Positions 21,381 to 47,221 of a stretch of DNA of 64,000 bases are shown piece after piece. Origin of the DNA: an uncultured Myxococcales bacterium (GTDB taxonomy: Bacteria; Myxococcota_A; UBA9042); contig CAIMLR010000017.1 in NCBI GenBank assembly GCA_903842345.1, positions 33,960 through 97,959 on the forward strand, read 5' to 3'. Below the pieces are notes generated by a model that was given only the letters and a program-made list of their open reading frames with translations, did no database searches and was not told the DNA's origin. Both the position numbers and the translations under genes were made by a program. Positions within the stretch are counted from its first letter, which is position 1. Every line of letters starts with the position of its first letter.

Positions 21381-21799
21381 CATCGTCGTCTGCCAAAAAG
21401 CCCTCGTTCTATTTGTGCGAGCAAGAAATCGGCAAATTGTGCATTCAAGGTCTTCTTCTTGACGCACAGGCGATTTCCACTTCTTGCACGACGATTATTC
21501 TTTCGCCCCTTCGCAGCAGATTTCCTCCTCGCCTCGTGTTTCTTTCCGCGTCGCATTTCTGCTTTTTGCGGCGCGAATGCTTGCGGAGCGGTTTCAAGGC
21601 CCAATTGCCGCCGGACCTGGGCTTCCGCCGTGCCGGGCCACGCCAGCGCCCCCAAAAGTCGATGGAAGCATCCTCCCGGCCCCCAGCGACAACGACTGTC
21701 GCATTCGCGCCCGAGCCTCCACGTCCCGCTTGTGCGAAACCGGGCCATCGACAAGACTCGCCGCCAGCGCGAAGCGCGCACGCAACAGCGAGGCCGACG

Positions 21800-22801: not shown

Positions 22802-22870
22802 TCGGCAGCGGAAACGCATGCGACACGGATTGTCGCAGCCTTCCCGTACATTCTACGGCGGAGGTTTCCC

Positions 22871-24916: not shown

Positions 24917-25027
24917 TGAAGCTGGCTCGGTGACGCCCTCGTGCGCGCCGCCTTCCAGTGAGGCACGCCAACCGCTAGAGTTGGTCGACTGGCCAGCCGC
25001 CGCGACCATGTTCCAAGAGGCAGACCC

Positions 25028-26611: not shown

Positions 26612-26725
26612 ACACGCCGTCATGCGCAAAACTCACTGATTTCCTGAGATAAGAAGCATGACGAGGCAAAGTCTGCCCGCGTCACAGTGTCTTTTTCCCA
26701 TTCGTATTTCAGGAGCTTTCCCACC

Positions 26726-26935
26726 ATGAACATCAAAATCCTCCGCCTCGGTCATTCCGCCCGCCATCACGAAGCCGCTGCCGGCGCCACCGTCGGCGAA
26801 GTCCTGGACGCGGTCGACCTGCCCGCCGCCGGTCACGCCATCTCGGTCAACGGCTTGGGCGCCAGCACGACCACCGGCCTCAGCGACGGCGACGTCGTCA
26901 CGCTGGTCCCGAAGGTCGAGGGCGGCAGCAAGTAA
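26726..26935 (+). CDS. Ubiquitin-like (beta-grasp, ThiS/MoaD/BilA-like) protein, 69 aa, ending ...VEGG-SK
   Basis: ATG at 26726, preceded by AGGAG at 26711. 69 aa with a C-terminal di-Gly followed by two residues (VEGGSK). Sits immediately upstream of E2-like, JAB and E1 genes. Confidence 0.6.
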   Translation: MNIKILRLGHSARHHEAAAGATVGEVLDAVDLPAAGHAISVNGLGASTTTGLSDGDVVTLVPKVEGGSK

Positions 26936-27009
26936 GCGATCCCGCAACACATTCGCCCGCTGGGCCGCATCCGGTGCGTCCGGAGCGGCTCGGCTGGCGG
27001 GGAGGCAAC

Positions 27010-28026
27010 ATGCATCACTGTGACCAGACCATGGCCGCGTACCTGCTGGATTGGCAGGCGAAGCTCGGCTTGAACATCCGCTACCAGCGTTGGTCGGCGC
27101 GGTACACCGACCCGGCGCCTTTCCGCCGCGAGATTGAACTGTTGGGCCCGATTGCTGGGACCGCAGACGAATGCCGGTTGCCGTACAAGGACGGCGTGCA
27201 GACGGTCAACGTCGTGCACGGCCGTCCTCACACGGGCGAGCCGGTCGAGCTGACCATCGACGGCGAGACCTTCGTGGTCGCGTCTGTTGAAGGCCGGCGC
27301 GTGCGCCTGGCGTTCGATCTCGAGCGCCTGTTTGAAGTGCCGGGCGAGATCCAACCGGGCCTCATCCTGGAAGCGGTCCTGGGCGCGGCGTTGCCACTGG
27401 CAGCGGCGTACATCAGTGCCTACGACTGGGAGCGCGAGAAGGCGGAGTTCGGGGCGTGGATGGTGTCGTCGGTCGACGGCATGGTCCGCAACTGGAAGAA
27501 CGCCATCCGCGACAATGAATACGAGGCCAACCGCCTGACGTCGCAAATCAGCGGCCTGGTACGCAAGAACGGCGAGCTGCGTGAGCAGATTGTGGCGCTT
27601 GAAGCAACGACGCGCCCGGCGCAGGAGACCAAAGCGGCGGAAGAGTTCGCGGCGCTGGTGAAGATGATGCCGTCGCCGGTCGTGAGTGTGGAAGTCGACT
27701 ACGGCAAGCTGAGCATCGTGCTGGAGCCGCTCACGTTGGAGCACGACAGCACGGACTACCGGATGGGCAGCTATACGCTGACGGTCACCGCCGACAAAGT
27801 GCACATCTGGTCGGACGGCGGTTTCAGCTATCCGCACCCGCACGTGAGCAGCGACGGCGTGCCCTGCTGGGGCAATCTGGGCCCCGGCATTGGCAAGTTG
27901 CTCGGCGAGGGCCAGTACGCGGCGTTGGTCAGCGTGATTCTGGAGTTTCTCCACAGTTACAACGAGCGCGACGCGTACCGGCACATCGAGACCTGGGACC
28001 CGGATTACAACAGCGAAGACGATTAG
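27010..28026 (+). CDS. E2-like (UBC-fold) ubiquitin-conjugating enzyme homolog with a ~230-aa N-terminal extension (BilB-like)
   Basis: C-terminal motif YPHPHVSSDGVPCWGNLGPG resembles the E2 HPN(I/V)...G.IC active site (candidate catalytic Cys in VPCW). ATG at 27010, preceded by GGAGG. The track alternative is GTG at 26974. Confidence 0.55.
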   Translation: MHHCDQTMAAYLLDWQAKLGLNIRYQRWSARYTDPAPFRREIELLGPIAGTADECRLPYKDGVQTVNVVHGRPHTGEPVELTIDGETFVVASVEGRRVRLAFDLERLFEVPGEIQPGLILEAVLGAALPLAAAYISAYDWEREKAEFGAWMVSSVDGMVRNWKNAIRDNEYEANRLTSQISGLVRKNGELREQIVALEATTRPAQETKAAEEFAALVKMMPSPVVSVEVDYGKLSIVLEPLTLEHDSTDYRMGSYTLTVTADKVHIWSDGGFSYPHPHVSSDGVPCWGNLGPGIGKLLGEGQYAALVSVILEFLHSYNERDAYRHIETWDPDYNSEDD

Positions 28027-28061
28027 CGTCAGCGCGACCGGCATCGACAACAGACGGCCTC

Positions 28062-28088
28062 GGGCAGTTTCCACGGTGGAAACTGCCC
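28062..28088 (+). terminator. Perfect 12-13 bp inverted repeat (GGGCAGTTTCCAC-G-GTGGAAACTGCCC) followed by GCGCTTTTGG. Intrinsic terminator/attenuator-like hairpin between the E2 and JAB genes.
   Basis: Read directly. Located 36 nt after the E2 stop and 28 nt before the JAB ATG. Confidence 0.4.
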
Positions 28089-28115
28089 GGGGTCGTCGCG
28101 CTTTTGGAGACGAAC

Positions 28116-28715
28116 ATGAAAGTGAAACAGAATCTGCGGGTTCGCATCGACGCGGACGCCATGGAGCGCATCTGGCACTGGACCGACCTGGCGGCAGGCG
28201 AGTTTTCCTGCCTGGGGACTGTCGCCGACGACATCCTCGTTGGCGATGTGCGCCTGTTCGATCAGATCTGCACGGCGGCCAGCACGGAGCTGGACCAGGA
28301 GGCGCTGGCGAAGTTCCTCGTGACGCATCCTCAGCCCGAGCACGTGCGGGCGTGGATCCACAGCCACGGGCGCCTGGGGGTCTTCTGGAGCCAGCAGGAC
28401 GAGGCGTGCATCGAGGGCCTGGCCAACGAGGCGTGCCTGATCAGCATCGTGGTCAACAAGAAGCGCGAGTGGAAGGCGCGGATCGACGTCTGGCAGCCGT
28501 TTCGGCTGACCTTCGACGACCTGCCGCTGGAAATCCGCCTGCCCGACCAGAACCTGCGCGGCGAGTGCGAACGCCTGTTCAATGCGCATGTGGTCGAGAT
28601 GGCGCCGGTGCTGATGCCGGATTGGCGCGGTGGTGTGCGGCAGCAGCAGCAACAGAGCCAGCCGTATCGGGGCGGGTGGCCTGATTTTGACGACGATTTG
28701 GCAGACTGGAGGTAA
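28116..28715 (+). CDS. JAB/JAMM (MPN+) metalloprotease, a deubiquitinase-like peptidase (BilC/Cap3-like)
   Basis: JAMM motif E(FSCLG)...HSHGRLGVFWSQQD, which is HxHx7Sx2D. 199 aa from ATG 28116. The track start is TTG at 28104. Confidence 0.75.
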   Translation: MKVKQNLRVRIDADAMERIWHWTDLAAGEFSCLGTVADDILVGDVRLFDQICTAASTELDQEALAKFLVTHPQPEHVRAWIHSHGRLGVFWSQQDEACIEGLANEACLISIVVNKKREWKARIDVWQPFRLTFDDLPLEIRLPDQNLRGECERLFNAHVVEMAPVLMPDWRGGVRQQQQQSQPYRGGWPDFDDDLADWR

Positions 28716-28718
28716 GCA

Positions 28719-29342
28719 ATGAATTTCCATCGACAACTGGATGTGCTGGATGTTCCGCGGCTGGCGCGGACGCCCATCACGGTCATTGGCGCGGGAGCGG
28801 TGGGCAGCTTCACCGTGCTGGCGTTGGCAAAGAGCGGCGCGGAAAACATCACCGTTTGGGATGACGACAGCATCGAGAGTCACAATTTGCCGAGCCAGTG
28901 GTACCGCCTGGCGGATTTGGGACGGCCGAAGGTGCTGGCGCTCAAGGCGCTGGTGTTGGAGATGACCGGCGTGGACATCAAGGTGGTGCAAGAGCGCTTC
29001 CAGGGCGACGGTGCGACGGAACTGACCATCTGCTGCGTGGACAGCATGGACGCGCGCATCGCGTTGTGGAGGCAACTTCATCCACGGCCTGCGCTTTATG
29101 TCGATGCGCGCATGGGCGCCGAGGTCGGCAAGGTCATGTGCGTCGGCGCGTTCGGCTCCTGGTACGAGGAAACGCTGCACCCCAGCAGCGAAGCGTACCG
29201 GGCACCGTGCACGGCGCGCGCGACCATGTACTGCGCCAGCGGCCTGGCGGCTTTCATCGCCGGGCAAGTGGCGAACTACGCCAGCGACCGGCCCACCCGG
29301 GACGAGATGACCGTCGATTTTCGCAACGGAATCATCATCTAA
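28719..29342 (+). CDS. E1-like ThiF/MoeB-family adenylyltransferase (BilD-like)
   Basis: Rossmann motif ITVIGAGAVGSFTVLALAKSGAENITVWDDD. 207 aa. Starts 3 nt after the JAB stop. Confidence 0.8.
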   Translation: MNFHRQLDVLDVPRLARTPITVIGAGAVGSFTVLALAKSGAENITVWDDDSIESHNLPSQWYRLADLGRPKVLALKALVLEMTGVDIKVVQERFQGDGATELTICCVDSMDARIALWRQLHPRPALYVDARMGAEVGKVMCVGAFGSWYEETLHPSSEAYRAPCTARATMYCASGLAAFIAGQVANYASDRPTRDEMTVDFRNGIII

Positions 29343-29354
29343 CCGGAGGTTTCT

Positions 29355-29456
29355 ATGAGCTGGATTTTCACGGCCCTGACCAACTTCGCAAGGATCCTCG
29401 ACCTCTGCATCGCCATCGCGATGTGGGTGGGCGGGACCCGGGCGGCGTGGATCTGA
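29355..29456 (+). CDS. Candidate small hydrophobic peptide (33 aa, MSWIFTALTNFARILDLCIAIAMWVGGTRAAWI)
   Basis: ATG 12 nt after the E1 stop, with GGAGG 7 nt upstream. Below the ORF-track size cutoff, so read directly from the sequence. Confidence 0.3.
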   Translation: MSWIFTALTNFARILDLCIAIAMWVGGTRAAWI

Positions 29457-29531
29457 CGCACGCTGCGGCGTGACAGCGAGAAGTCCGGGGCGGTCAAGGT
29501 GGCCGTCCCGGGCTTTTTGCGATGGAGCAAA

Positions 29532-29930
29532 ATGAAGCCATTGGCAAAGAACGCGGGCGACATCCTGGACGCGCTGACAGCGGGACTGGAGATCGGCGGC
29601 GCGCGCAAGATCGACAACGGCACCTACATGGCCGTCCACGTGGACAGGCTGAGCCAGGCGACTTTTAGCGTCGCGCACTACTTCAAGCAGAACGGCGAAC
29701 TGGTGTGCGACCCGGACGGCGTGTTCCTCAAGACCGCCGCCGGCTGGTTGCCCGTGACGCTGCAGCTCAGCACCGGCCATTACACCGTGGCGGTCGAGTT
29801 GGACGGCAACGACAAGCCGACAGGTTGGCGGCCGCGGCAGTACCGCGAGTTGCACTCGTTCGCGGCGATGTGGCTGCGAAACATTCGCGAGCAGCAAGGC
29901 GGACTGCGCAATATCACCGAAAATACATGA
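29532..29930 (+). CDS. Hypothetical protein (132 aa)
   Basis: ORF co-directional with the Ubl-E2-JAB-E1 cluster. No recognisable motif. Confidence 0.45.
   Translation: MKPLAKNAGDILDALTAGLEIGGARKIDNGTYMAVHVDRLSQATFSVAHYFKQNGELVCDPDGVFLKTAAGWLPVTLQLSTGHYTVAVELDGNDKPTGWRPRQYRELHSFAAMWLRNIREQQGGLRNITENT
29906..29927. repeat. Short AT-rich motif copy in reverse orientation (rc: TGTATTTTCGGTGATATTGCGC), overlapping the last codons of the 132-aa ORF
   Basis: GTATTTT-CGGTGATA family. Confidence 0.4.
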
Positions 29931-29993
29931 GGTCTTGGCGTAGGCCGGTGTCGGAGGTTCCGGCGCTGACCCGCGTCTCTATGGAGGTGCGAC

Positions 29994-30602
29994 ATGGACC
30001 AGGAGAAACTGCGGCTGCTGACGCGGCCATTCGCGGACATCAAGAGCCGGCCCGGCCGGAACGGTCAGGCGATCCAGTACGTGGAGGGGCACGCGATCGT
30101 GCAGCGGCTCAACGAGGCGCTCGCGGGCGACTGGTCGTTCCGCGTGCTGGAGCACGACGTGCGCGAGGGCGAGGTCATCGTGCTGGGCGAGCTGCGCGTC
30201 GGCGACACGGTCAAGCAGGCGTTTGGCGGATCGGAAGTGACGCGGACGCGCGAGGGCAAGGTCGTCAGCGTGGCGGATGACCTCAAGGCGGCGGCGACGG
30301 ACGCGCTGAAAAAGGCGGCGACGCTGCTCGGCGTGGGCATGCACGTGTACGTCGCGGAAGAGCCGCCGGCGCAGGTGCACAAGGGACCCAAGCTGGTGGA
30401 AGCGCACGACGAGCCCGACGTGCCGCCGAACAATCGGCTGACGCGCAAGCAGGCAGAGTTCATCGGCACGCTGGCGAAGTCAAACGGCATGGGAAAGCAC
30501 GAAGTGGACGAACTGGCGCAGCGGCGATTCGGCAAGTCGGCGGGATTCTTGACGGTAAAGGAGGCGAGCGAGTTCATTGCGGCGCTGACGGCGGCGGCGT
30601 AG
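29994..30602 (+). CDS. Rad52/Rad22-family single-strand annealing protein (phage-type recombinase)
   Basis: N-terminal motif GQAIQYVEGHAIVQRLNEALAGDWSFRV resembles the Rad52 ssDNA-annealing core (YIEGw.vi..aNeiFGf.GWS). ATG preceded by GGAGG. Confidence 0.55.
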   Translation: MDQEKLRLLTRPFADIKSRPGRNGQAIQYVEGHAIVQRLNEALAGDWSFRVLEHDVREGEVIVLGELRVGDTVKQAFGGSEVTRTREGKVVSVADDLKAAATDALKKAATLLGVGMHVYVAEEPPAQVHKGPKLVEAHDEPDVPPNNRLTRKQAEFIGTLAKSNGMGKHEVDELAQRRFGKSAGFLTVKEASEFIAALTAAA

Positions 30603-30946
30603 CGCGCGCTGGTATTCGCGCGGGTCACAGCGCCGGGAGTGCGAGTGCCGGGCGCGGTGCGCGGCCTGAAGGGGCAAGGTCGGCGAATGCTGATCTTGTT
30701 TCTTAGGTTCAAGCCGTAATCCGGCGCGAGAACTACAAAGCGGTTGAACGTGCCAGCCGAGCAGCAAGATTCTGGCGCTCGATGTCGGATCAATCGCGGC
30801 TGCGCCACGGGCCAACGCCCATTCGTTGTGAAACTGCAGGCCGGTGAGCTGGGTCCAAGTTTTCGTAACATGACCTGCGCAGATTTCGGTGGAGCGGCAG
30901 CTTGTCGCGGGTCGGTTGCGGTGAGGCAAGACGCGCAAGCGCCCGC

Positions 30947-30975
30947 TTGACATGCAACGGGAGATGGCTTACATT
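30947..30975 (+). promoter_or_regulatory. Sigma70-like promoter: TTGACA, 17 nt spacer, TACATT
   Basis: -35 TTGACA at 30947-30952, a 17-nt spacer, -10 TACATT at 30970-30975. Lies 36 nt upstream of the ATG at 31011, which is preceded by AGGAGA. Confidence 0.4.
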
Positions 30976-31010
30976 GGCTGTCGACGCGGCATGCGCCACA
31001 GGAGACAGTC

Positions 31011-31457
31011 ATGGCAGAGTTCATTTCTCAAGAGGTTTTTGCATCTACCACGCCGCGGACGCTGGAACGGACCGCGTTCGTGGAGTCGTTCGATGGCCAG
31101 ATTCGTGGGTCGATCCTCGCATATTTCGCGTCCGACTTGCGCGGCACACAGGTCACGCTGCGTGTCCTTGACGATCTAGGCGAATCGCAGGTCAAGGCTC
31201 TGGCGGAGGCGTCGGTCCGTACGTTTGGCGAGGCCAAGCAATGTATCGGGCTTCGGGTGCCGATCCTGCTGGTGCGAATGTTTGGCGCAGGGCACGTCGC
31301 GACCTACCGCGATCCGGTAAGCAAGAAGGCCTCGACGCGATCCTGTTCCGCCAACTGGCCGAACCTCAAGTGGGTCAGTCGTTACACGCCGCATCAACTC
31401 TCCGAGGCGGCGCGTGGCCAGGTCCAGACTCTTCTCACAAGCGTCGATCGCGTCTAG
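31011..31457 (+). CDS. Hypothetical protein (148 aa)
   Basis: ORF with an RBS and an upstream promoter-like element. Confidence 0.45.
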   Translation: MAEFISQEVFASTTPRTLERTAFVESFDGQIRGSILAYFASDLRGTQVTLRVLDDLGESQVKALAEASVRTFGEAKQCIGLRVPILLVRMFGAGHVATYRDPVSKKASTRSCSANWPNLKWVSRYTPHQLSEAARGQVQTLLTSVDRV

Positions 31458-31499
31458 CCCACCTTCATGCAATCGACCAAACCGAACAGGAGCCCCATC

Positions 31500-32492
31500 A
31501 TGACCCAGATTTCGCACCGCATCTGCCAAGAACACCAGCAAATTCAATATTTTTCCCTACCGGCCGCTACGCCGCAGCACCGACATCGCCACGTCCTGCC
31601 GCACGGGACGAACTGGACGAACCTGTTCACTTCAATCGCGGGTGCAGATGGCACGGCGGACCGCTTCTTCGAGGAGCGGCGGATCAAATGGTGGTCGTCG
31701 CCGGTCACGGGCGATCCGCGCTGGCTGCGTGGGCCGACCCACAACGCGCTGAGCTCGCAAGTCGCGTGCGTCAACGTGCTGCTGCCATTGCGGGAAGACC
31801 CGGACGCGCTCACGGCGATGCTCCAGGCGTTGGATCCGGAAGTCGAGACGGTCGTCGCGGTGAACGACGGCCACACGGAGCGCCCTGCGAGCGTGGAGTT
31901 CGAGTGGGTTGGTGCCAAAGGTCACCGGTCGCTGGAAGGCACGGCGCCGACGCGCGGGCAACGCGTCACGAGCACGGACGCGGTGCTGGTCGCGCGGCTC
32001 AAGAACGGCGCGCTCCGCGGCTACCTGATGGAGTGGAAGTACGTGGAAACAGGCGATGAAGCGGACAAGCGTGCAGGGACGGAGGGCGAGACGCGACGCG
32101 GTCGATATCGCCAGCTGTTTGAGACGGTGTTCAAGACGGACGCGACGCTCGACAACTTCCTCGTCGATCCCGCGTACCAGCTGATGCGCCTCTCCCTGCT
32201 CGCGCGCCAGGTCCTCGACAAACAGCAGCTGCCGGGCGTGACCAGCATGCGGACGGTGCTTGTGTGCCCGCGCGAGAACTTCGCGTATCGCAAACTGCGC
32301 GCGGATGGCCTCCTTCGAGCGCGTTTTCAGGTCGATACGCTCGTCGAAGTGATGCGCGCCGGGCTGCGGGAGCCGCAGACTTTCATTGACACGTCGCCCG
32401 CAGAGTTGGTGCAGGCCGTGCGACGGGCACGAACGCCTGGCACCGACCGCGTGACTTGGCTCGCATACATGGCTCATCGCTACGGCTGGTGA
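31500..32492 (+). CDS. Hypothetical protein, possible PD-(D/E)xK nuclease fold
   Basis: D...GYLMEWKYVE suggests a D/ExK motif. ATG at 31500 preceded by AGGAG. The track start is 31467. Confidence 0.4.
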   Translation: MTQISHRICQEHQQIQYFSLPAATPQHRHRHVLPHGTNWTNLFTSIAGADGTADRFFEERRIKWWSSPVTGDPRWLRGPTHNALSSQVACVNVLLPLREDPDALTAMLQALDPEVETVVAVNDGHTERPASVEFEWVGAKGHRSLEGTAPTRGQRVTSTDAVLVARLKNGALRGYLMEWKYVETGDEADKRAGTEGETRRGRYRQLFETVFKTDATLDNFLVDPAYQLMRLSLLARQVLDKQQLPGVTSMRTVLVCPRENFAYRKLRADGLLRARFQVDTLVEVMRAGLREPQTFIDTSPAELVQAVRRARTPGTDRVTWLAYMAHRYGW

Positions 32493-32580
32493 TGCGGCCG
32501 GCGGCCACCACCTGATTGCGCGCCGAGAGCCTTCCAGGACGCACTGGATGACGCTGACGCGCGACAGGATGCGCAACGTG

Positions 32581-32937
32581 CTGCGCCAGTAGCCGCTCTG
32601 AACGCCGCCGCGTAGCTGGCCAAGGCGGGGACAGACCGACCTGCCGGGAAAAACTCCAGGGTATTGAACTCACCGACGCCGTATCCATCATAATATCCAG
32701 CCAGTAGCAGACATGAACGTCAAGCTGGCGCCGTGCAGGCGCTGCGTGCAACGTGTAGACCGTAGTGCGGCCGCGTGCCGCGCCTGCGCCTGAACACCAC
32801 AAAATCAGGCGATTCTGCGCGCAGCTCGGCCTTGACGGGCTCGCTGGACCGGTCAAACTCGACTTCAGGCGGCGTGCTGGCGGGTCCTGCGTTGGCGGAG
32901 GGCAGTATGGAGGCGGCGAATAGCGAAGCGAGACCCC
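32581..32937. repeat. R1: ~360-bp composite repeat (copy 1 of 4) immediately upstream of the 1261-aa ORF
   Basis: Shares with 37029-37430 and 38361-38768 these blocks: gcgccagtagccg..., ataatatccagccagtagc(c/a)gac, gaacacc(c/a)(g/c)aaaat(g/c)a, ccttgacggg(c)(c/t)cgctggaccgg, tcgacttcaggcggcg(c/t)gctgg, ggcgaat(g/a)gcgaagcgagaccc. Confidence 0.6.
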
Positions 32938-33064
32938 ATGGGACTTACTACTCGCCCCCAGCAAATGAACGTTTCGTCTCAGCTGATGGAGATGATCGAG
33001 CGTCGCGTCGACTTCACTGGGATGGTGCTCTGTGGTGAGTTGGAGCAACTCGAAGGAATTGTCG

Positions 33065-36000
33065 ATGCCATACACGCACCTCGCCGACGCCGCCGATTTG
33101 AACTTGTGGGCGGCGCATCGTCACGCGGCCGCGGCGCTGCTACCAAAGCTGGTTCGGCGTCTAATCTTGCAGACGACCGACAGCGCCGAACGCGTTGAAT
33201 TCCGCGCGGGTGAAGGCGTCTACCTTCCTGGCTGGGACGGCGTCGTGTTGGCGGCCGCTGCGACCGCTTTCGTACCGCAAGGCGCATCCGTCTGGGAAAT
33301 GGGCGTCGGCGACCCCGGCGGCAAAGCGAACGAAGACTACAGCAAACGCACGGCAGACCCGCGTGGCGTCACCCTCGCCGACACGACTTTCGTATTCGTC
33401 ACGCCGCGTCGATGGCCAGGCAAGTCGGCGTGGCTTTCCGACCGCACTGCCGATGGGCTCTGGCGGTCGGTGCGAGCCTTCGATGCCGACGATTTGGAGA
33501 CATGGCTTGAGCACGCGCCGTCCGTCCACCTGTGGGTCTCTGCGCTCGTCGGCAAGCCTTCCGATGGCGTTCAGTCGTTGGACGACTGGTGGTCGGGGTG
33601 GTCAGCCGTGACCAATCCGCAAACGCCGGCGGCGCTACTTCTCGCGGGACGCGAAGACCAAGCCCAACGCATTCAGGCGTGGCGCGACGGCGACGGTTTC
33701 TCGCTGACCATCCGCGCGGACGCGCCCGACGAGGGCGTTGCATTCCTTGCGGCCCACGCGCAGGCGATCTCGGACGATACAAACCGCGAGCGGATCTTCG
33801 CTTCGACGTTGGTCGTCACCAGCGAGGCCGTCTGGACTCGGCTATGCAAGACGGCGACGCCGCTCGTGCTGGTGCAGCTCTTCCAATCGACCAGTGCGGT
33901 AGGGCAGGCACGCCGCGGGCACCGCGTTGTCGTTCCATCAGGCCGCGTCTCCAAGACCGCCGGAACCGCAATTGATCTGCCACGGATTTCGCGCGGGCCA
34001 GCCGAAGAGGCCCTGCGCAAAGCCGGTCTGACGGAACACCAAGCAACACCGCTCGCCGGCATCGCGCGGCGGAGCCTCACCGCTTTTCGCAGGAACCTGT
34101 CAGATGGCGCGGCGACTCCCGTCTGGGCGAGCCCCTCCGACGCGCGCACGCTGCTTCCTGCGCTTCTCCTTGGCCGTTGGCGGGACGCCGTTCCGGGTGA
34201 CGTCGCCGCCGTGGAGCGTCTCGCTCGCGTGTCATACGTGGACGCGATTGCTCCGCTCCGCCGGTGGTCGCTGGAGCCGGATCCGCCGATTCGGCAAGTC
34301 GCCGGGACTTGGTATTTGACCGCTCCCGAGGATGCGTGGTCTTGGCTCGCCCCGTCCCTTCTCGCGGCCGACCTCGACGCGTTCACAGAGCTGGCCGGCG
34401 ACGTGCTAGCCGCAGTGGACCCGAAGTTCGACCTTGCCGACCACGAACAGTGGCTGGCTCGTACTCGTGGACTGGTCGCCGTGCATTCTGAGCAACTGCG
34501 GATAGGGATCGCGCAAACGCTGGCGCTGATGGCGACCCGTGCAGATGAAGCGCACGCGGGCCTGGGTTTGCCGACCCGCGCGGCGATGGTCGTTCGGTCA
34601 GTTCTTGACCGCGCGCATGCTGACTGGCGGGTCTGGGCGACGCTTGGTCGCGCGCTTTCGGTGCTTGTCGAGGCGGCACCCGACGAGTTCCTGGGTGCCG
34701 TCGGTCGTGGCCTAGCAGGAGAACCACCGCCGCTGCGGGCAATCTTCCGCGACGCCGCTAGCTCACTGTTTGGCGAATCTCCCCATCCGAGCGTGATCTG
34801 GGCGCTGGAAACGCTCGCGTGGAGCACCGGGCACCTTTCAGCCGCTACTCTGGCGCTCGCCGGACTCGCGCGCATCGACCCGGGTGGAAAGCTGGCGAAT
34901 CGACCGGGACACAGCCTCCGGACCATCTTCCTGCTGTGGATGCCGCAGACTTCGGCCTCAATGGAACGTCGCCTCGAAGCCATCGACCTGCTCCGGCAGC
35001 GTGAGCCCACCGTTGCATGGAAGCTGATGTGCGACATCATGCCGACCGGCCACGACACCAGTTCGCATACGACGCGTCCGACGTGGCGCGACTGGGCGCC
35101 CGACGGAGAGATGGCGGTGTTGCATGCGGAAATGCTGAAGGGCTGGCGCGCGATACTGGATCGCCTGCTTCAGGATGTTGGCGTCGACGGCGTTCGATGG
35201 GCGGTGCTCGTGGACAAGCTCCAGTCGTTGCCGCAGGAATGGCGTGCCGATGTCGTGTCGCCCCTCGCGGCCCTCTCGAACGTGCCCTCGACGGTCTTGG
35301 AACCGAGGAATTTGCAGCGTGCAATCCGCCAGTTGGTCGGATTCCACAGGTCACATTCACATGCTGACTGGACACTGCCGCCGGCCCTCCTCGAATCGCT
35401 GGCCGCTGTTCACCAACGACTGGACCCAGTCGACCCGGTCGAGCGATACATGTGGCTGTTTGCGGCGGGCGCGCGCCTGCTGGACGGCTCGGAGTCGGAT
35501 GACTGGCGCAAAGAGCAGGAGGAGATCCAAGCGGCTCGTCAGGCTGCGATTCGAGAAGTCTTTTCCGCGGGTGGACATGCCGGCGTTGTGGCGCTTGCAC
35601 AGGCTGCCTCGATCCCTGAACTCGTCGGGTTCAGCTCCGGTCGTGTGGGCGTACTGACGGATGTCGAAGACAGAATTCTGAGCGAAGGGCTGGCGGCGTC
35701 CGATCCTGGGACCTCGTCGTTTGCATTCGGCTTGCTCAAAGGCCGCGCGTCCGTCGGCGGACAGCACTGGCTGGCCGGCCAGCTCGCAGGCGCTTCCGCG
35801 AACTGGACTCCCGACGCCCGGGCGTGTGTGCTCATGCTCGTGACGCCTGGCCCGACCGCCTGGGCAGCGGCAGATGCGTTTGGACGCGACACAGCACGCG
35901 CCTATTGGAAGCGCATCCCCTATTTCCACGTCGGCGAACTCACGAACGCAGCGGCCGCGGCATCGCTGTTTGTCGAGCACGGGCGTCCGTTTAGCGCGGT

Positions 36001-36850
36001 CGACCTTGTCGCGGCCGCCCTGTACCAGAACGTTTCGCTGGAACCGTCCACGGTCTTGGGAGTTTTGACCGCGGCGCTGACACCAGCGCCGGTCGAAGAG
36101 CCGCAGTCAGATGGCTTCGCCGACCATGTACTCAAGCTGATGGAGTCGGTTCAGGTGGCGCCGGAATTGGAGGATGATGCGGTCGCGCGCGTCGAGTGGC
36201 TCGGCATCCGCTTTTTCCGCCACTCGCACCGCGGGCATCGACCAGTTCGTCTCCACCGCGCGATGAGCCGCGACCCAGACGTGTTCATCTCGGCGCTCAA
36301 ACTGGTCTTCACGGGCGACGACATCCAAGCGGCCGACCACGACATCGGTCGAAACGAAGCGGCGGCCCACAACGCGTACGAACTTCTGTCCTCGTGGCGC
36401 GTGCTGCCTGGCAGCCAAGACGACGGATCGATCGACGGCGCTGCTCTGCTCGCTTGGGTGCGGAGCGCGCGTCAGTTGGCCGCGGCCTGCGGCCGGACCG
36501 GTATCGCCGATGACCAGATTGGCGCCATGTTGTCCGGCTCACCCGCGGACCCCGACGGCGCGTGGCCGCACCCGTCGGTTGCTGCGGTGATCGACGAAAT
36601 CTCCACCGAGGCCATGGACAGCGGTTTCCGTTGCGGAATCTTCAATTCCCGTGGCGTCTCGTCACGCCGCCTCTTCGAGGGCGGGGTGCAGGAACGGTCG
36701 CTCGCGGACACCTACCGCGAACGGGCCGCTGCGCTGTCGTCGCGATGGCCACGGACGGCGTCCGTTCTGCGCGCTCTCGCCGATACCTACGCTCGCCACG
36801 CAACGAGCGAGGACGAGGAAGCCGAGCGCGACCAAGACCTGGGATACTGA
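33065..36850 (+). CDS. Large hypothetical protein (1261 aa), orphan
   Basis: A long uninterrupted ORF with codon usage consistent with the host. ATG at 33065 preceded by GAAGGAA. No motif recognised by eye. Confidence 0.55.
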   Translation: MPYTHLADAADLNLWAAHRHAAAALLPKLVRRLILQTTDSAERVEFRAGEGVYLPGWDGVVLAAAATAFVPQGASVWEMGVGDPGGKANEDYSKRTADPRGVTLADTTFVFVTPRRWPGKSAWLSDRTADGLWRSVRAFDADDLETWLEHAPSVHLWVSALVGKPSDGVQSLDDWWSGWSAVTNPQTPAALLLAGREDQAQRIQAWRDGDGFSLTIRADAPDEGVAFLAAHAQAISDDTNRERIFASTLVVTSEAVWTRLCKTATPLVLVQLFQSTSAVGQARRGHRVVVPSGRVSKTAGTAIDLPRISRGPAEEALRKAGLTEHQATPLAGIARRSLTAFRRNLSDGAATPVWASPSDARTLLPALLLGRWRDAVPGDVAAVERLARVSYVDAIAPLRRWSLEPDPPIRQVAGTWYLTAPEDAWSWLAPSLLAADLDAFTELAGDVLAAVDPKFDLADHEQWLARTRGLVAVHSEQLRIGIAQTLALMATRADEAHAGLGLPTRAAMVVRSVLDRAHADWRVWATLGRALSVLVEAAPDEFLGAVGRGLAGEPPPLRAIFRDAASSLFGESPHPSVIWALETLAWSTGHLSAATLALAGLARIDPGGKLANRPGHSLRTIFLLWMPQTSASMERRLEAIDLLRQREPTVAWKLMCDIMPTGHDTSSHTTRPTWRDWAPDGEMAVLHAEMLKGWRAILDRLLQDVGVDGVRWAVLVDKLQSLPQEWRADVVSPLAALSNVPSTVLEPRNLQRAIRQLVGFHRSHSHADWTLPPALLESLAAVHQRLDPVDPVERYMWLFAAGARLLDGSESDDWRKEQEEIQAARQAAIREVFSAGGHAGVVALAQAASIPELVGFSSGRVGVLTDVEDRILSEGLAASDPGTSSFAFGLLKGRASVGGQHWLAGQLAGASANWTPDARACVLMLVTPGPTAWAAADAFGRDTARAYWKRIPYFHVGELTNAAAAASLFVEHGRPFSAVDLVAAALYQNVSLEPSTVLGVLTAALTPAPVEEPQSDGFADHVLKLMESVQVAPELEDDAVARVEWLGIRFFRHSHRGHRPVRLHRAMSRDPDVFISALKLVFTGDDIQAADHDIGRNEAAAHNAYELLSSWRVLPGSQDDGSIDGAALLAWVRSARQLAAACGRTGIADDQIGAMLSGSPADPDGAWPHPSVAAVIDEISTEAMDSGFRCGIFNSRGVSSRRLFEGGVQERSLADTYRERAAALSSRWPRTASVLRALADTYARHATSEDEEAERDQDLGY

Positions 36851-37028
36851 CACAAGCATCGCCCCGGGGACCTGTGAGGCACCCCCGCGCCGGAATCGAC
36901 TCAGCCCCTGGTCTGCCTCAGCTCGGTCAGGCGGCGGAGCGCGGCTCGCTGCGTGGCGGCATCCACGGGCGTTTGATTTACGGCGCTTGCGTACTGGGTG
37001 TGCAGCCATGCCATGACACCTTCGCCTT

Positions 37029-37430
37029 TGCGCCAGTAGCCGACCTCGACGCCTTGGACGACTCTGCGTAGCCGGCACGGCGGGGACAGACCGACCCGCC
37101 GCGAAAAAAGTTCGTGGCCGTGAAGTCGTGACGTCGTATCCGTCATAATATCCAGCCAGTAGCCGACATGAACGTCGAGCTGGCGCCGCACAGGCGCTTA
37201 CGTGCAGCGTGTGGACCGGTAGACCGGCCGCGCGTGCACAACTGCGGCTGAACACCCGAAAATGACGCCGTTCTGAGCCACTGCTAAGGCCACTGCTAAG
37301 GCCTTGACGGGCCCGCTGGACCGGGCTAACTCGACTTCAGGCGGCGCGCTGGACGGTCCGGTGTCTGAAAAGGAACTCAATGTGGGTGGCGAATGGCGAA
37401 GCGAGACCCGTTCCTATCTCCTATCAGCCG
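37029..37430. repeat. R2: ~400-bp composite repeat (copy 2 of 4) upstream of the 275-aa ORF
   Basis: Same conserved blocks as R1/R3. Ends with ggcgaatggcgaagcgagaccc...cctatcagccg. Confidence 0.6.
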
Positions 37431-37492
37431 GCCAATTTGTCTCGTCTGCCAAGGCGATGTTTCATCAACTAGATTGAACGGCGAGGCCTCCT

Positions 37493-38320
37493 TTGGTCGA
37501 ATCTGTGAACAGAAATCCCAATGAAATTGCTAATGACTGGCAGATGCGGTCGTGGCGCCCGCTCCTCGTCGTTGATGAAGCACGCGCACAGACCAACCCC
37601 ATCGGTCGTGAATGGGTTGGGTTCTTCTGCGTGGTGACCACCGTGGGTCAGGCTTGCCGTTTCCTCCAAGAATTCCAGTCGATCCGGGAATCGCTTCACG
37701 CCACGGACGTCTCGTACAAGTCTGTGAACCTGCATCGCAAATCGAATCCAAGACGCCACCAGCAGATTCTAAGTTTCCTTGAATCCGAAACGGCGGCGAT
37801 GCCATGGTACGTGGCAATGACCACGCAACATCAACTCGATCGGATGCGTGACGATTCGGTGAAGGCAAGGCTCACAATCGGGAACCCGCATCCAGATCGG
37901 CCTGCCGAAATCGGTGGTCGCGAACTCTTGCCTGCAGCGACGATGATGCGGGAAGTTGCACTGCGGCGTGGGTATGTCAACGAGCAAGTGGATGTTCTTA
38001 TTGACCGATCCAAGCAGTTTGGACTCGACCCAAAGACGCGGAATCTTCCTCCAAACGTATTCGAGGTGCTCGGTCCGGGAAGCTTCAACGCCGGACCAGG
38101 GGGCGTGGCCTTGGACCCGTACTGCCCAGCCGAGTTCCGCCTGATTGCCGCGTCCGACCAGACACCGGGGTTGCGGGATCTTCTGCTGCTTCCGGACTTT
38201 GTCGGATACCGGAACCGTCTCCGACTGCATGAGGAGTACAAGGCACATCCAGAAACCGACAATCATTACATGTGGTTCAAGACGCGCGACGACATTTCTA
38301 ACTGGCCGACAATCAAATAG
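37493..38320 (+). CDS. Hypothetical protein (275 aa), lower GC than its surroundings
   Basis: ORF directly after R2. Visibly more AT-rich codons (aatgaaattgctaatgactgg...). Confidence 0.45.
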   Translation: MVESVNRNPNEIANDWQMRSWRPLLVVDEARAQTNPIGREWVGFFCVVTTVGQACRFLQEFQSIRESLHATDVSYKSVNLHRKSNPRRHQQILSFLESETAAMPWYVAMTTQHQLDRMRDDSVKARLTIGNPHPDRPAEIGGRELLPAATMMREVALRRGYVNEQVDVLIDRSKQFGLDPKTRNLPPNVFEVLGPGSFNAGPGGVALDPYCPAEFRLIAASDQTPGLRDLLLLPDFVGYRNRLRLHEEYKAHPETDNHYMWFKTRDDISNWPTIK

Positions 38321-38360
38321 CTTTCCGTCCGCTCAGGTAAACCTTGAAATGAAAGAGCCA

Positions 38361-38768
38361 CTGCGCCAGTAGCCGACTTGGACACCTTGGACGACGCTGG
38401 GTAGCGCCGCAGCGTCTTGACGGACGCGTGCTGGCCAAGGCCGGGACCGCCAGACCTACGGGGAAAAGTCCCACGGCGGTGAAGTCGCCGACGCCGTATC
38501 CGCCATAATATCCAGCCAGTAGCCGACGTGCGTCGCCGCGCAGGCGCGGATGAGGAACGTGTGGACCGGTAGCCCGGCCGCCGGCGCACTGCTGCATCTG
38601 AACACCCGAAATGACGTCATTCTGAGCCATTGCGGCCCTTGACGGGGGCGCTGGAGCGCCCGAAACTGGCCGTCAGGCGTGGCGCTGGACGGTCCGGGGC
38701 TGCCAAGAAGCTGGATGGGTGCGGCGAATGGCGAAGCGAGACCCCATCGCACGTCCTATCAGCCGCAG
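38361..38768. repeat. R3: ~400-bp composite repeat (copy 3 of 4) upstream of the GNAT gene
   Basis: Same conserved blocks. Ends ggcgaatggcgaagcgagaccccatcgcacgtcctatcagccg, 13 nt before the GNAT ATG. Confidence 0.6.
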
Positions 38769-38780
38769 GCGATTTGAGCA

Positions 38781-39173
38781 ATGAAGATTCAGGAAATCGA
38801 GGCCGCGCAACTGCGCAATGCCGCTTTGCAAGCGCGTGCCACCATTGGCGGCGTTACGTCTTGCACTCGACTGTTCGCCGCGACGGAGAACGGCGTTGAA
38901 GTCGGTTTCCTTTCTCTCGATTTCAAACGGCCACCCGCTGACCTCGAAATCTATGAAATCTTTGTGATTGTGGGCCATCGCCAGAGATCTGTTGGAAATT
39001 CACTTTTGGCCCACGCGGAGGAATTAGCCCGCAAAAATGGATACTCACATGTGTTGTTGAAACCAAAGCCGCTTGACACGACCATTTCGGAAGACGACTT
39101 GATCGGGTGGTACACGCGGAAGGGATTTGTAACACATCCGGCCGCAGAGTGCCTCCTTCGTAAATCAATATGA
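38781..39173 (+). CDS. GNAT-family N-acetyltransferase
   Basis: 130 aa. Acetyl-CoA-binding-like segment IFVIVGHRQRSVGNSLLAHAEELARKNGYSHVLLKPKP. Confidence 0.65.
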   Translation: MKIQEIEAAQLRNAALQARATIGGVTSCTRLFAATENGVEVGFLSLDFKRPPADLEIYEIFVIVGHRQRSVGNSLLAHAEELARKNGYSHVLLKPKPLDTTISEDDLIGWYTRKGFVTHPAAECLLRKSI

Positions 39174-39215
39174 ACGACCACGTGCGGCGCGAACTCCGGC
39201 TGCCACCACTCGGAC

Positions 39216-39404
39216 GTGAAAAGCGGCAGTTCCAGCGACTCCAACGCGTTCAGGTCCGGCGACCACTGCCACTTTGGCAACTGCGTTGGCAGCAACATCA
39301 GCTGCAACGACAGCAACCCGTGCACCACCGGCGCGCGCAGTCCGGCCACCGGCTGCACCCACGCGCTCCAGGGCGGCACGAGCTGCGGCAGCGGCAATTA
39401 TTGC
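39216..39404 (+). pseudogene. Fragment of a Myxo-type Cys-rich repeat gene (CNDSNPCTTGAR...CTHALQGGTSCGSGNYCA), abutted by repeat copy R4
   Basis: Its translation resembles the CxDGNxCTxDxC repeats of the giant protein at 41188-47064, but only ~1.5 repeat units are present, with no signal peptide or C-terminal domain. The ORF continues into repeat-derived sequence. Confidence 0.3.
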
Positions 39405-39520
39405 GCCGATAGCCGACTAGGACGCCGTGGACGACGCCGGGTAGTCGGCACGCCGCAACGTGTGGACTGGTGCGGGCTGGCCAAGGCGGGGACAACAGAC
39501 CTGCAGCGAAAAAATCCACG
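39405..39520. repeat. R4: truncated copy (the first ~115 bp only) of the R repeat
   Basis: gccgatagccgactaggacgccgtggacgacgccgggtagtcggcacg...ggccaaggcggggacaacagacctgcagcgaaaaaatccacggccgtg aligns to the 5' part of R1-R3. Confidence 0.45.
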
Positions 39521-39966
39521 GCCGTGCAGATGCTTCTCGTGGTCGCCCATGTCGTCCTCTTCCCGCCGTTGTCACCGCCAACCGTGTCGATCGAGCCGTT
39601 CTTGGTCGAGCCGAACGCCCGCGTGTAGCACGCCACATCCGATCACGCCGGGACATCGCGGTCAAGGCTAGGGCCTCTCTTGGCCGCTCACCAAAAACCA
39701 TCCACCCCTTGCACCAAAAGCCAGCCGCCGCCGCCCACAAGTTCCGTTCCAATGGCGCACGACGATGGCAACTCTGCCCGCAAATGTCAGTCCCGTGCCG
39801 ACGTCCAGATGCCAACAATTATTCGTAGATAATAGATGCGCGCACACGCGCGGTCGCCCCACGTTGAAGGCCGCCGCGGTTCGGGAGACGGCCTCATGAA
39901 GTCGGGCATCGCCGCGCCAGATGCGGTATAAGCCAGCGAAGCGACTACTGCTTCCCTGGAGGATCC

Positions 39967-41187: not shown

Positions 41188-44100
41188 TCAAAGCGTGCGT
41201 GCGCATCGAAATCCGAGTCCCGGGTAACGCCAGACTGGAGTTGTGTTCAGGCGATACGTCGCCCGCATTTGGTTGGCTGCGCCCGACTCGTACCAGGAAC
41301 TACCGCGATAGACCTTGTCGCCACCGACAGCCGGACCGCCCGGATTTGTTTGCGCGGCGGCTGGATACTTGTCGTACCAGTCCGAGCACCACTCCTGGAC
41401 ATTTCCCTCCAGATCGCACGCCCCCTGGCCACTGTTTCCCGCGGTCTTTGAGCACACCGGCCATTCGCTGCCCGTGTTGCAACCGAAGCCGATCTCGTAC
41501 CAGACAGCATAGGTGCAGGACGGTGTTGCGCTGCCCCAAGGGTAGTCTTGGCTGAGTCCGCCGCTCCGGGCCGAGTACTCCCACTCTGCCTCCGTCGGCA
41601 ACCGCCCGCCCGTGTGCGCCCAAGCGCAGTATGCGTCCGCTTGGAACCAGTCCACGCAGTTGATGGGATGTTGCCCAACTCCCGTGCTGCCAAAATTGCA
41701 GCCCGTCATCGTTGGTGGGTATGCCGGGTAGTCCGAATTCGCCGGATTTCCGCACAAGAAACTGGCTTGGTTGTAGCCAGAACATTTTTGCCCGGAGCCC
41801 AGCTGGTTGTAGAACGTCGTGTATTGCGCGACGGTCACCTCGGCCTTGTCGAGCTCAAATGCGGAAAGTGTCACTTGGTGGTCTGGTTCCTGATCGAACT
41901 CTGTCGCCTTGCTCGCCGGCAACCCCATCGTGAACGTGCCCGCCGGTAGCACGACCATCCCTGGCGTGGCGCAGTCGGTGGCGCAGGTCAACGCCGTCTC
42001 GCAGCCGTCGCAAGCTGCGTTGCCACAGACAGGCACAGTGCCCTTGCAGGTGCCCGCAGCGCAGGCATCGCCCGTCGTGCAGGTGTTGCCGTCGTTGCAG
42101 TTCACGGCATTGTTCGCGTGCTGGCAGCCAATCGCGTTGCACGAGTCCGTCGTACACGTGTTGCCGTCGTCGCAGCTGGTCGTTGTTGTGTGCACGCAAG
42201 TTCCGGTGGCGTTGCAACTGTCGGCGGTGCAGACATTGCTGTCGTCGCAGTTCGTCGCAGTCCCGGCGCAACTGCCGCTGGCGCAGATGTCGCTCGTGGT
42301 GCAGGCGTTGCCGTCGTTGCAGGCGCTGCCGTCAGACTTGGTGGGATTGCTGCATGCGGCAGCGCTGCAGACGCCCGCAGCGTGGCATTGATCCAGCGCA
42401 GTGCAGACGATGGCCGTGCCGCCGCAGACGCCAGTGGTACACTTGTCGCTGGTCGTGCATGCGTTTCCGTCGCTGCAAGTTGTGCCGTTGCTGATCGCCG
42501 GGTTGCTGCACAGACCGCTCGATGTGTCGCAGGTGCCAGCAGCGTGGCACTGGTCGAGCGCGCCGCACGTCACGGAGTTGCTGCCAGTGCAGGCGCCGGC
42601 GATGCACGTGTCCACCAAGGTGCAGGCATTTCCGTCCGCGCATGTCGTTCCGTCGTTCTTGACCGGGTTGGTGCACACGCCGGTTCCAGAATTGCACGCC
42701 CCCACGCCGTGACACTGGTCGATCGCAGCGCAGACGACGGCCGACCCGCTCGAACACCCGCCGCCCTGACATGTGTCGGGCGCTGTACAGGCGTTGCCAT
42801 CGCTGCACGCCGAGCCATTCGCCTTGGCCGGGTTTGAACAGCTGCCAGAAGCCGAGTCGCACGTACCGGCCAAGTGGCACTGATCCAGCGCCGTGCAAAC
42901 GATCGGACTCGCGCCGCTGCACGCCCCCGCGACGCACGTGTCGGACTGCGTACAAGCGTTGCCGTCCGTGCAGGCGGCCCCGTCAATTTTCTTCGGGTTG
43001 CTGCAGGTGCCCGCCGTGCACGTTCCGACGTTGTGGCACTGGTCGCTGGCGGCGCAGACGACGGCAGCGCCACCACAGAGACCGCTGGTGCAAACGTCGC
43101 TCGTCGTGCACGCATTTGCGTCGTCGCACAACACACCGTCGACTTTGTTGGGATTGCTGCACTGTCCGCTGGCCAGATCGCAGCTGCCCGAGCCGTGGCA
43201 CTGGTCGCTCGCCATGCACGTGACCGGCGCGCCGCCGCATGTGCCACCCGCGCACTTGTCGCCCGACGTGCAGAGGTTCCCGTCGTCGCACCCGGCGCTG
43301 TTGTTGGTGAACGCACACGCGCCGCCGCTGCAGGCGTCCGTCGTACAAGCGTTGCCATCGGAGCAAGCCATCGCGGCGCCGGCTACGCATGTGTTGCCGG
43401 CGCATTTGTCGTTCAGCGTGCAGGGGTTGTTGTCGCTACACGGCGACACGTTGGCTGCGTGCTTGCAGCCTGCGATGGGGTCGCAGCTGTCGTCGGTGCA
43501 CGGGTTGCCATCGTCGCAGTTGAGCGGACCGCCAGCGTTGCACACGCCGCCCACGCACGCGTCGCCGGCGGTGCACACCGTGCCATCGGCATAGCACAAT
43601 TGCCCAGAGTTTTGCGCGACCAAGCTGCACGCTCCGCTCGTCGGATTGCACGTGTTCTTGCGGCAAAAGTTGTCGCTGGCCGTGCTGCATGTCACCACCG
43701 TCGCCGGGTTCACCTTGCAGCCGTATGGCACGCTCGATGTGTCGCAGAACAGCGTGCCGTTGCACGCGTTGCCATCCTCCTGACCGGCACAATCGGCTGT
43801 CGTCGTGCACGAGCAAGTGTTGGTGCCAGAGGCGCACTTGCCGCTGCTGCAGAGGTCGCCCACCGTACAAGGGTTGTCGTCGCTGCACGCGCCGGTGGCG
43901 CTCTTGTGCTGGCAGCCACCGACGGGATCGCAGGTGTCCGCCGTGCAGCCGTTGTTGTCATCGCAGTACGCGGCGGGCGTTACCGGCAAGCCACTGCACG
44001 CCGCTGCTGCGCAGACGTCATTGATCGTGCAGGCATTCCCGTCAACGCACGGGAGCGTGTTTGGCGCGAAGACACACCCCGAGGCGGTATTGCACGTGTC

Positions 44101-47064: not shown

Positions 47065-47221
47065 CGCGCCGCTGAGCCGAAGCCCCGTTCGCCAGTCCAC
47101 GTTCACCCCTGGCGTCAAGCACAAGTTGTCGTGCTGATGTTGACGATACTACCGCCAATGACCAAGCAGCAAGGGTCTATAGCGGGTTCAATGTCAACGA
47201 TGCGCCGCCGACACTTCCGGC

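Follow-up and report, generated by a model that had tools for sequence, protein, structure and literature searches.

Why does one long repeat recur four times, in a single orientation, among genes that are unrelated to one another? The question is raised by a 64,000-nt stretch of DNA from an uncultured Myxococcales bacterium (contig CAIMLR010000017.1, positions 33,960 to 97,959; the whole stretch is called the window below), in which four direct repeats, R1 to R4, alternate with three cargo genes in a 7.5-kb array. The repeats are tentatively read here, with somewhat less than even confidence, as expression-adaptor junction modules of a cassette-like gene array to which no capture mechanism is assigned. 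An earlier account made from the nucleotide letters alone, referred to as the sequence-only reading, had proposed that each repeat supplies a promoter and a shared 5' untranslated region (UTR) and had likened the layout to an integron or other gene-capture array. Its observation was confirmed, and its interpretation was partly supported overall. The array is not an integron. What the locus suggests as new is a logic of expression and arrangement that resembles that of integrons but uses a long unstructured repeat, with a leader open reading frame (ORF) at every junction and no enzyme seen.

The repeat array, its cargo and a second locus

R1 to R4 are direct repeats on the + strand and lie at the sites described earlier. 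Pairwise BLAST gave E-values of 1e-48 to 1e-64 between full units and of 1e-8 to 1e-21 between R4, of which only the 5' part is present, and the other window units (Table 1). The identity was lower than the 80-85% first claimed, at 74-80% over ungapped aligned columns and 71-76% in gapped BLAST. The extents were also adjusted at both ends of the array: R4 may reach ~39533, and an extra fragment at 32514-32580 abuts R1 on its 5' side. By BLAST, 35 nt of this fragment aligned with R4 at 80% identity, and 59 nt aligned at 78% with the third fragment of the second locus described below. Three diagnostic blocks were confined to the R sites in the 64 kb, with 0-0.16 matches expected from shuffles, and an nhmmer profile of the unit, run over the window and 10 kb of its left flank, detected no additional copy. 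The window units are all contained in 7 kb, with none elsewhere in the ~77 kb that were also examined.

The three cargo genes and four repeats are all on the + strand, each full unit being co-oriented with, and immediately 5' of, an unrelated gene, as the cassette-like description had it. The distance from unit end to gene start was ~108-127 nt for R1, 62 nt for R2 and 12-15 nt for R3, in agreement with the 13-130 nt reported before. The GC content of the units is host-like (0.63-0.67). Full-length matches to the 7.5-kb array were obtained from 4 loci, all 100% identical, and partial matches from 10 further contigs were 99.96-100% identical, with several samples and several assemblers represented. 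Because the array is identical across independent contigs, it is not an assembly artefact.

A genome scan returned one real relative of the unit and two chance matches. The relative (L003, the second locus) is a 1,986-bp contig of a lake Myxococcales metagenome-assembled genome and holds, in order, a 94-nt 3' unit fragment, a unit without sub-a (the first of two 5' sub-segments, see below), a lipoprotein gene and a third, internally deleted unit. The unit without sub-a directly precedes the lipoprotein gene, a 302-aa ORFan (GC 0.571; GC at third codon positions, GC3, 0.60), and the third unit starts directly after the stop codon of that gene. The 5' extents of units are variable (94, ~290 and ~400 nt), and the 3' end is constant. 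The sequence-only reading had named uniqueness to this locus as the sign of a simple local segmental duplication; since the unit also stands before a different gene in a second Myxococcales genome, the repeats are not unique in that sense. The second-locus unit was 79-82% identical to the window units, at least as close as the window copies are to each other (74-79%), so that a recent local duplication does not account for the window copies. By these identities the relationship of the units is star-like, with no gene conversion homogenising the window copies.

Other searches for relatives yielded little. A gapped metagenome scan gave chance matches only, viral scans gave nothing or chance matches, and blastn against plasmids and phages gave no match. 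The unit motifs were not found in the literature searched.

The cargo genes differ in distribution and composition. The product of cargo 1, of 1261 aa, had been called an orphan; a full HMMER scan instead recovered 6,868 representative homologues at 50% clustering, 3,153 of them at E <= 1e-30. The homologues are full length (about 1260 aa) and 35-40% identical, and the family had no match in Pfam, NCBIfam, PADLOC or PDB. One homologue adjoins type I restriction-modification, caspase-like and TIR genes, and another stands alone in Cystobacter ferrugineus. No unit was present upstream of the two homologues examined, indicating that the unit goes with the array rather than with the genes it precedes. 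Cargo 2, described before as a low-GC ORF, is indeed of low GC (0.562) and a true ORFan: it found only itself among 5.8 billion proteins, had no family match in Pfam, NCBIfam or PADLOC, and its AlphaFold2 model (pLDDT 33) was unusable. The GNAT assignment of cargo 3 was borne out by a Pfam match to Acetyltransf_1. When the cargo was compared with immunity genes, GNAT was the sole Pfam, NCBIfam or PADLOC family found, and two cargo genes, cargo 2 and the second-locus lipoprotein gene, were ORFans.

GC3 was 0.56-0.63 in cargo 2, cargo 3 and the second-locus cargo versus 0.80-0.88 in neighbouring native genes, and these three genes are of foreign base composition. The four genes behind full units (three in the window, one at the second locus) are mutually unrelated, and three of the four are compositionally atypical.

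As a separate observation, the family of cargo 1 is a candidate single-gene defence protein (loci L032 and L034), judging from the neighbours of one member. A role of cargo 1 as a conserved partner of the REase-ARP nuclease was considered and rejected. Whatever the origin of the array, this cargo flags a very large uncharacterised family with at least one member in a defence island.

Table 1. Repeat units, small ORFs, cargo genes and neighbouring gene groups, in window coordinates (SD, Shine-Dalgarno sequence; L003, second locus).
Feature	Position	Strand	Details
R1, full unit	32581-32956	+	sub-a, sub-b, TTGACG 32832-32837, SD GGAGG 32897-32901, small-ORF start; nhmmer E 1.6e-112
R2, full unit	37028-37430	+	TTGACG 37304-37309, SD AAGGA 37370-37374; nhmmer E 1.4e-120
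R3, full unit	38361-38765	+	TTGACG 38639-38644, degenerate SD AAGAAG 38705-38710; nhmmer E 3.1e-110
R4, 5' (sub-a) part only, closes the array	39402 to ~39533	+	nhmmer profile positions 1-102, E 7.2e-23
Weak partial sub-a copy abutting R1	32514-32580	+	61% identity in repeat search; marginal nhmmer E 0.68
R1 small ORF	32907-33038	+	43 aa, MEAANSEARPHGTYYSPP...; SD GGAGG, spacing 5 nt; stop 26 nt before cargo 1 ATG
R2 small ORF	37380-37472	+	30 aa, MWVANGEARPVPISYQP...; SD AAGGA, spacing 5 nt; stop 20 nt before cargo 2 TTG
R3 small ORF	38715-38777	+	20 aa, MGAANGEARPHRTSYQPQAI; SD AAGAAG (one mismatch), spacing 4 nt; stop 3 nt before GNAT ATG
L003 first copy, small ORF			SD AAGGAG, spacing 4 nt
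L003 second copy, small ORF			SD GGGAGG, spacing 4 nt; no stop, in frame with downstream lipoprotein gene
Cargo 1, 1261 aa	33065-36850	+	GC 0.663, GC3 0.74
Cargo 2, 275-aa ORFan	37493-38320	+	GC 0.562, GC3 0.63
Cargo 3, 130-aa GNAT acetyltransferase	38781-39173	+	Pfam Acetyltransf_1 E 2.1e-08; GC 0.522, GC3 0.56
Cysteine-rich-repeat gene fragment, 186 nt, between GNAT and R4	39216-39401	+	tblastn 35-47% identity, best E 1e-7
Complete BREX type 2/Pgl-like system	382-18157	+	
HNH nuclease and DUF262/NsnA-like protein	18190-20203	-	
WYL/WCX regulator, IetA-like double AAA ATPase, calcineurin-like phosphoesterase	21413-25753	+	
ThiS/ubiquitin-like gene ending GG, JAB-like, ThiF, DUF6908, Rad52-like annealing protein, 148-aa gene, REase-ARP	26687-32492	+	

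Anatomy of the unit and its small ORF

A unit measures ~400 bp (range 270-410 bp) and is non-coding except at its 3' end. It begins with two paralogous sub-segments, each opening with CCAGTAGCCGAC: sub-a (~115-150 nt) opens with YTGCGCC-AGTAGCCGAC and sub-b, which follows, with CATAATATCCAGCC-AGTAGCCGAC. The conserved blocks after sub-b are, in order, GTGTGGACCGGTAG; CTGAACACC...AAAATGA...TTCTG; CCTTGACGGG..CGCTGGA; TCAGGCG; GCTGGACGGTCCGG; and GGCGAATGGCGAAGCGAGACCC; and the 3' end of the unit reads ...CCTATCAGCC. The CCTTGACGGG..CGCTGGA block, which contains the conserved TTGACG, is separated from GAAGCGAGACCC by 76-77 nt in every copy, and the GAAGCGAGACCC block falls inside the small ORF. 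A perfect 12-bp tandem duplication, CCACTGCTAAGG x2, just 5' of the TTGACG block, is peculiar to R2 (37278-37301, +). R2, R3 and the two second-locus copies share one 3' boundary to the nucleotide (...TAT CAG CC/, the slash marking the boundary), and the end of R1 is degenerate. The junctions read ...CAGCC/G and YTGCGCC/AGTAGCC.

The conserved 22-nt leader that the sequence-only reading had assigned to a shared 5' UTR proved to open a small ORF that is preceded by a Shine-Dalgarno (SD) sequence. The frame is present in all five copies that contain the region (three in the window, two at the second locus) and reads M-x-(A/V)-A-N-(G/S)-E-A-R-P-x4-Y-(Q/S/R)-(P/R), with an invariant ATG. Its first 16-17 codons lie inside the unit, and in R1 to R3 the stop codon is supplied by cargo-specific DNA. 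In four of the five copies a canonical SD stands 4-5 nt 5' of the ATG, and the fifth has a form with one mismatch; the zone is otherwise variable, and an SD-like 4-mer was found at that distance from only 8.3% of the ATG triplets in the window. No indel occurred across the first 16-17 codons, with 1-nt indels just upstream. The small-ORF peptides had no Pfam family match, and an intact paralogue with the small-ORF N-terminus was not present in any DNA examined.

Apart from this 3' ORF, a protein-coding nature of the units was rejected: mismatches had no 3-base phase, frames differed between copies, and stops occurred in every frame in at least one copy. Folding provided no sign of an attC- or Frpo-like hairpin (DNA z = -1.09 for the + strand and -0.65 for the - strand; z = -0.10 for RNA of the 3' module), and no inverted repeats were found within units. 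A structured RNA was rejected too: the alifold covariation term was +0.25 to +1.6 with 1-3 compensatory pairs, nothing meaningful. Rfam had 0 matches in the window at the gathering threshold, and an E-value scan of 32400-39900 gave two chance matches outside the units. Target-site duplications, which had been proposed as boundary signatures, were absent from the unit flanks when the sequence was read directly; terminal inverted repeats were absent as well, the 5' end TGCGCCAGTAGCC and the reverse complement of the 3' end agreeing at 5/10 positions. A sigma-54-type GG-N10-GC was present in only three of five copies.

A dif/Xer site was also considered and rejected, the CATAATAT block having one arm-like half only and no palindromic partner. 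A tRNA-derived att site was suggested by a 26-nt likeness to a tRNA-like 3' fragment at a related locus (L023); it was rejected, as ARAGORN and Rfam found no tRNA or tRNA fragment in the array.

Proposed expression and capture, and competing origins

If the repeats are expression-adaptor modules, each unit would drive transcription from a promoter around TTGACG, which stands at a suitable distance. Ribosomes loaded by the unit would terminate near the cargo start and re-initiate there (translational coupling). Such coupling would allow the expression of a foreign gene whose own signals are poor, for example the GNAT gene behind R3, whose own SD is weak only. Foreign genes may have entered the unit at a single fixed position, each of them either carrying a unit along or causing one to be duplicated. 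As the enzyme is not encoded nearby, the process would act in trans or be no longer active.

The closest functional parallel is class 1 integron attI1 with ORF-11, and the closest architecture that of integron arrays, clusters of attC sites lacking integrases (CALIN) and rAID-1. ORF-11 and ORF-18 at attI1 span the site of insertion, end at a stop codon that the cassette provides and raise the translation of signal-poor cassettes by termination-reinitiation (PMC8876359). In attI1, as in the window array, a short ORF with a canonical SD lies in the conserved platform, crosses the insertion point and receives its stop from inserted DNA (PMC8876359), ending a few to tens of nt before the cassette start codon. 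Both systems have co-oriented genes, some compositionally atypical, and the window array consists of co-oriented one-ORF cassettes separated by a repeat, as integron and CALIN arrays do. They differ in that the integron ORF element occurs once, at attI beside intI, whereas in the window it is repeated at every junction. Integron attC sites are 57-141 bp imperfect-palindrome hairpins with a GTTRRRY core, whereas the units are 270-410 bp and unfolded; integrons have an integrase and mobile cassettes, and the window array shows neither. Of the likeness to a gene-capture array proposed from the sequence alone, the co-oriented arrangement therefore stands; the tested ORFs contain no integrase or recombinase, and an attC-like fold is lacking.

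The rAID-1 clusters (recombinase-associated acquired interbacterial defence) of Bacteroidales are arrays of co-oriented genes with skewed GC and a XerD-like recombinase, and the repeats between their genes have been called 'reminiscent of integrons' (bioRxiv 10.1101/471110). The window array shares the repetitive intergenic sequences, the skewed GC of the cargo and a place on or near mobile DNA. A XerD-family recombinase heads the rAID-1 array, whereas the gene 5' of R1 encodes a PD-(D/E)XK nuclease (REase-ARP) and no recombinase was found; the rAID-1 cargo consists of recognisable immunity genes, whereas the window cargo had no immunity-family match; and the phylum is different and the repeats are unrelated. 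The array lacks defining features of integrons, of rAID-1, of IS91/ISCR elements and of miniature inverted-repeat transposable elements (MITEs).

In a stronger form, which is unlikely, the array would be a Myxococcota gene-capture platform, analogous but unrelated to integrons, with insertion at a fixed nucleotide in the leader ORF, one module per junction and an unexpected catalyst in trans. With a promoter, SD and leader ORF at each junction, each captured gene would be expressed on its own, with no single Pc/attI. Candidate catalysts in trans are a Y2 HUH transposase like that of the second locus, or the Rad52-like protein together with the PD-(D/E)XK nuclease, the genes for which lie immediately 5' of the array.

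Should the units function as proposed, they would be a second, independent answer to the integron problem of expressing genes that arrive without usable signals, with two differences from integrons, namely an adaptor repeated per junction and insertion within a small ORF of the leader. They would also point to a hitherto unrecognised way in which defence and mobile islands of Myxococcota acquire genes, and would provide a sequence signature for finding more arrays.

Several observations weigh against the adaptor and capture proposal. The unit family was seen at two loci only. No presence or absence of cassettes was detected across 14 independent contigs, and the array being invariant in them, mobility is without any sign. 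Neither Pfam, applied to the sizeable ORFs tested across the 64 kb, nor the flank gene tables revealed an integrase, a tyrosine or serine recombinase, a resolvase or a transposase, and the 10-kb left flank contained no recombinase or transposase. A consensus scan of the units for a sigma-70 promoter was negative, and TTGACG was not accompanied by a conserved -10; the earlier claim that each repeat supplies expression signals gained support in another form, the SD-led small ORF, and a promoter at TTGACG was not supported. Plausible SDs also precede cargo 1 and cargo 2 themselves. The first ten codons of the small ORF are almost invariant at third positions too, and the mismatches lack 3-base periodicity; selection may therefore act on DNA or RNA, such as a binding site or an initiation region, and not on the peptide. 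Finally, a host-type gene fragment lies between the GNAT gene and R4 and fits gene replacement as well as capture.

This last point bears on the best of the alternatives, an unlikely one, in which the array is a decayed set of tandem paralogues. Each unit would then be the promoter, 5' UTR and first ~16 codons of a native gene, possibly for a cysteine-rich secreted protein, the body of which gave way to foreign DNA by illegitimate recombination. The small ORF does resemble a retained N-terminus, and the surviving fragment at 39216-39401 is related to the cysteine-rich repeats of a 1978-aa gene on the opposite strand (41188-47124). The tail holding the fragment (39174-39401) has a host-like GC of 0.671, as the units do, and the static array and the lack of a recombinase in the tested ORFs would also be expected of such a remnant. 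The common 3' boundary speaks against it, because independent illegitimate events would scatter, whereas R2, R3 and the two second-locus copies have their replacement boundary at one and the same nucleotide. An intact paralogue with this N-terminus is missing from the DNA examined, the local copies are no closer to one another than to the unit of the other genome, and the genes behind full units are unrelated in 4/4 cases and compositionally atypical in 3/4. Should the array be the wreck of a tandem gene family after all, it would be an ordinary case of regulatory DNA outliving its genes.

The fragment itself is probably a pseudogene fragment of 'Dictyostelium repeat' type; the intact 1978-aa gene ends in an FGE-sulfatase domain.

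An origin of the unit from a Y2 HUH rolling-circle transposon of the IS91/ISCR type, either as its oriIS-proximal end with outward expression signals or as a derivative that is non-autonomous, is quite unlikely. This possibility arises from a longer contig (ERZ1426847) with the same lipoprotein (P0033) as the second locus, on which an IS91-family Y2 HUH transposase (529 aa, Zn_Tnp_IS91 and Y2_Tnp) lies ~1.2 kb 5' of the units on the same strand. Its linkage to the units is putative. The constant 3' end and variable 5' extent of the units, and the lack of target-site duplications, as in IS91 (PMC13181058) and ISCR1, are in keeping with such an element. The ISCR1 oriIS region is a ~230-bp conserved end with outward promoters (POUT) that lies 0-1211 bp upstream of many captured genes and precedes 93 different gene groups (PMC6218425), and the unit end ...TTCCTATCTCCTATCAGCC resembles the ISCR1 oriIS ...CTTCCTATACCC (PMC13023784). 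This likeness spans 6-9 nt only, however, and the window units have no attached transposase, no Y2 transposase being found in the tested window ORFs or flank gene tables. Significant subterminal palindromes and stable folds are lacking. The bases after the unit end are AGCC, AGCC, AGCG and GGCA, with no conserved GTTC/CTTG-type tetranucleotide, and the identical 5' boundary of the four window copies is not predicted by one-ended transposition.

A 316-aa ORF is likewise located upstream of the second-locus repeats, on the same strand, on the ERZ1426847 contig.

Insertion of a MITE-like mobile intergenic repeat or 'mobile promoter' independently upstream of each gene is still less probable. Homologous non-coding DNA before non-homologous genes, within and between genomes, has been described in >4,000 families of putative mobile promoters (PMC3488235), and the units, with their sharp boundaries and occurrence in two genomes, share this arrangement, the genes behind full units being unrelated. 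As a descriptive class, defined by an arrangement that gene duplication does not explain, putative mobile promoters therefore include the units. The described families are 50-100 nt long with >=80% identity and no tandem arrangement (PMC3488235), whereas the units are ~400 nt, 74-80% identical and equipped with a small ORF and initiation signals, and are clustered in one array whose genes comprise an ORFan, a GNAT gene and one from a large uncharacterised family. No terminal inverted repeats or target-site duplications accompany them, and the window units are confined to 7 kb, the remaining ~77 kb examined being free of them. All full copies point the same way and sit at gene junctions of a single array, and their divergence of 20-26% does not suggest that they spread recently.

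A true integron or CALIN, or a series of Frpo-like single-strand promoters of a conjugative leading region, is extremely improbable: repeats do lie between co-oriented genes in a mobile-element-like neighbourhood (PRTRC-like Ub/JAB/ThiF cluster, Rad52-like annealing protein, DUF6908), but IntI is absent from the ORFs tested, the sequence at the boundaries has no GTTRRRY core, the 270-410 bp units form no imperfect palindrome on either strand, nor the long hairpin of ~300 nt by which Frpo recreates -35 and -10 elements in single-stranded DNA, and Rfam gave no match.

Genomic neighbourhood of the array

To the left of the proposed junction modules extends a long series of genes typical of defence systems and mobile elements, which the array borders on its right, with more defence genes farther left (Table 1). 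The BREX/Pgl genes encode PglW (NERD and two kinase domains, 1455 aa), the PglX methylase (Eco57I/DUF7008), PglY, PglZ, BrxD and a DEAD/Lhr-like helicase. The left flank of this system differs between strains (L028 vs L029, locus positions 4918-8780), whereas the repeat array itself is invariant. The gene calls in this flank were 559 + 186 aa in one assembly versus 443 + 555 aa (DUF4379) in the other.

This series is closed by a pair consisting of the 148-aa gene and the PD-(D/E)XK REase-ARP nuclease gene, which ends 88 nt before R1. The pair is 62% conserved at L023; the genes downstream differ there and no unit is present, and none was found in the related REase-ARP elements L023-L027. At L023 the pair sits behind a gene for a 1429-aa HIT-PLD-helicase-S24 protein. 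Positions 14440-15530 of that locus contain the tRNA-like 3' fragment and a terminator hairpin beside a frameshifted tyrosine integrase and an HTH_17 gene. This segment is probably the att boundary of neighbouring islands; ARAGORN found no intact tRNA there.

Downstream of the array, positions 52491-56982 of the window encode an ADP-ribosylglycohydrolase, a DSP-PTPase of 'polymorphic toxin system' type (- strand), a YqaJ-like exonuclease and an ankyrin-repeat protein, forming a further conflict- or mobile-element-like patch.

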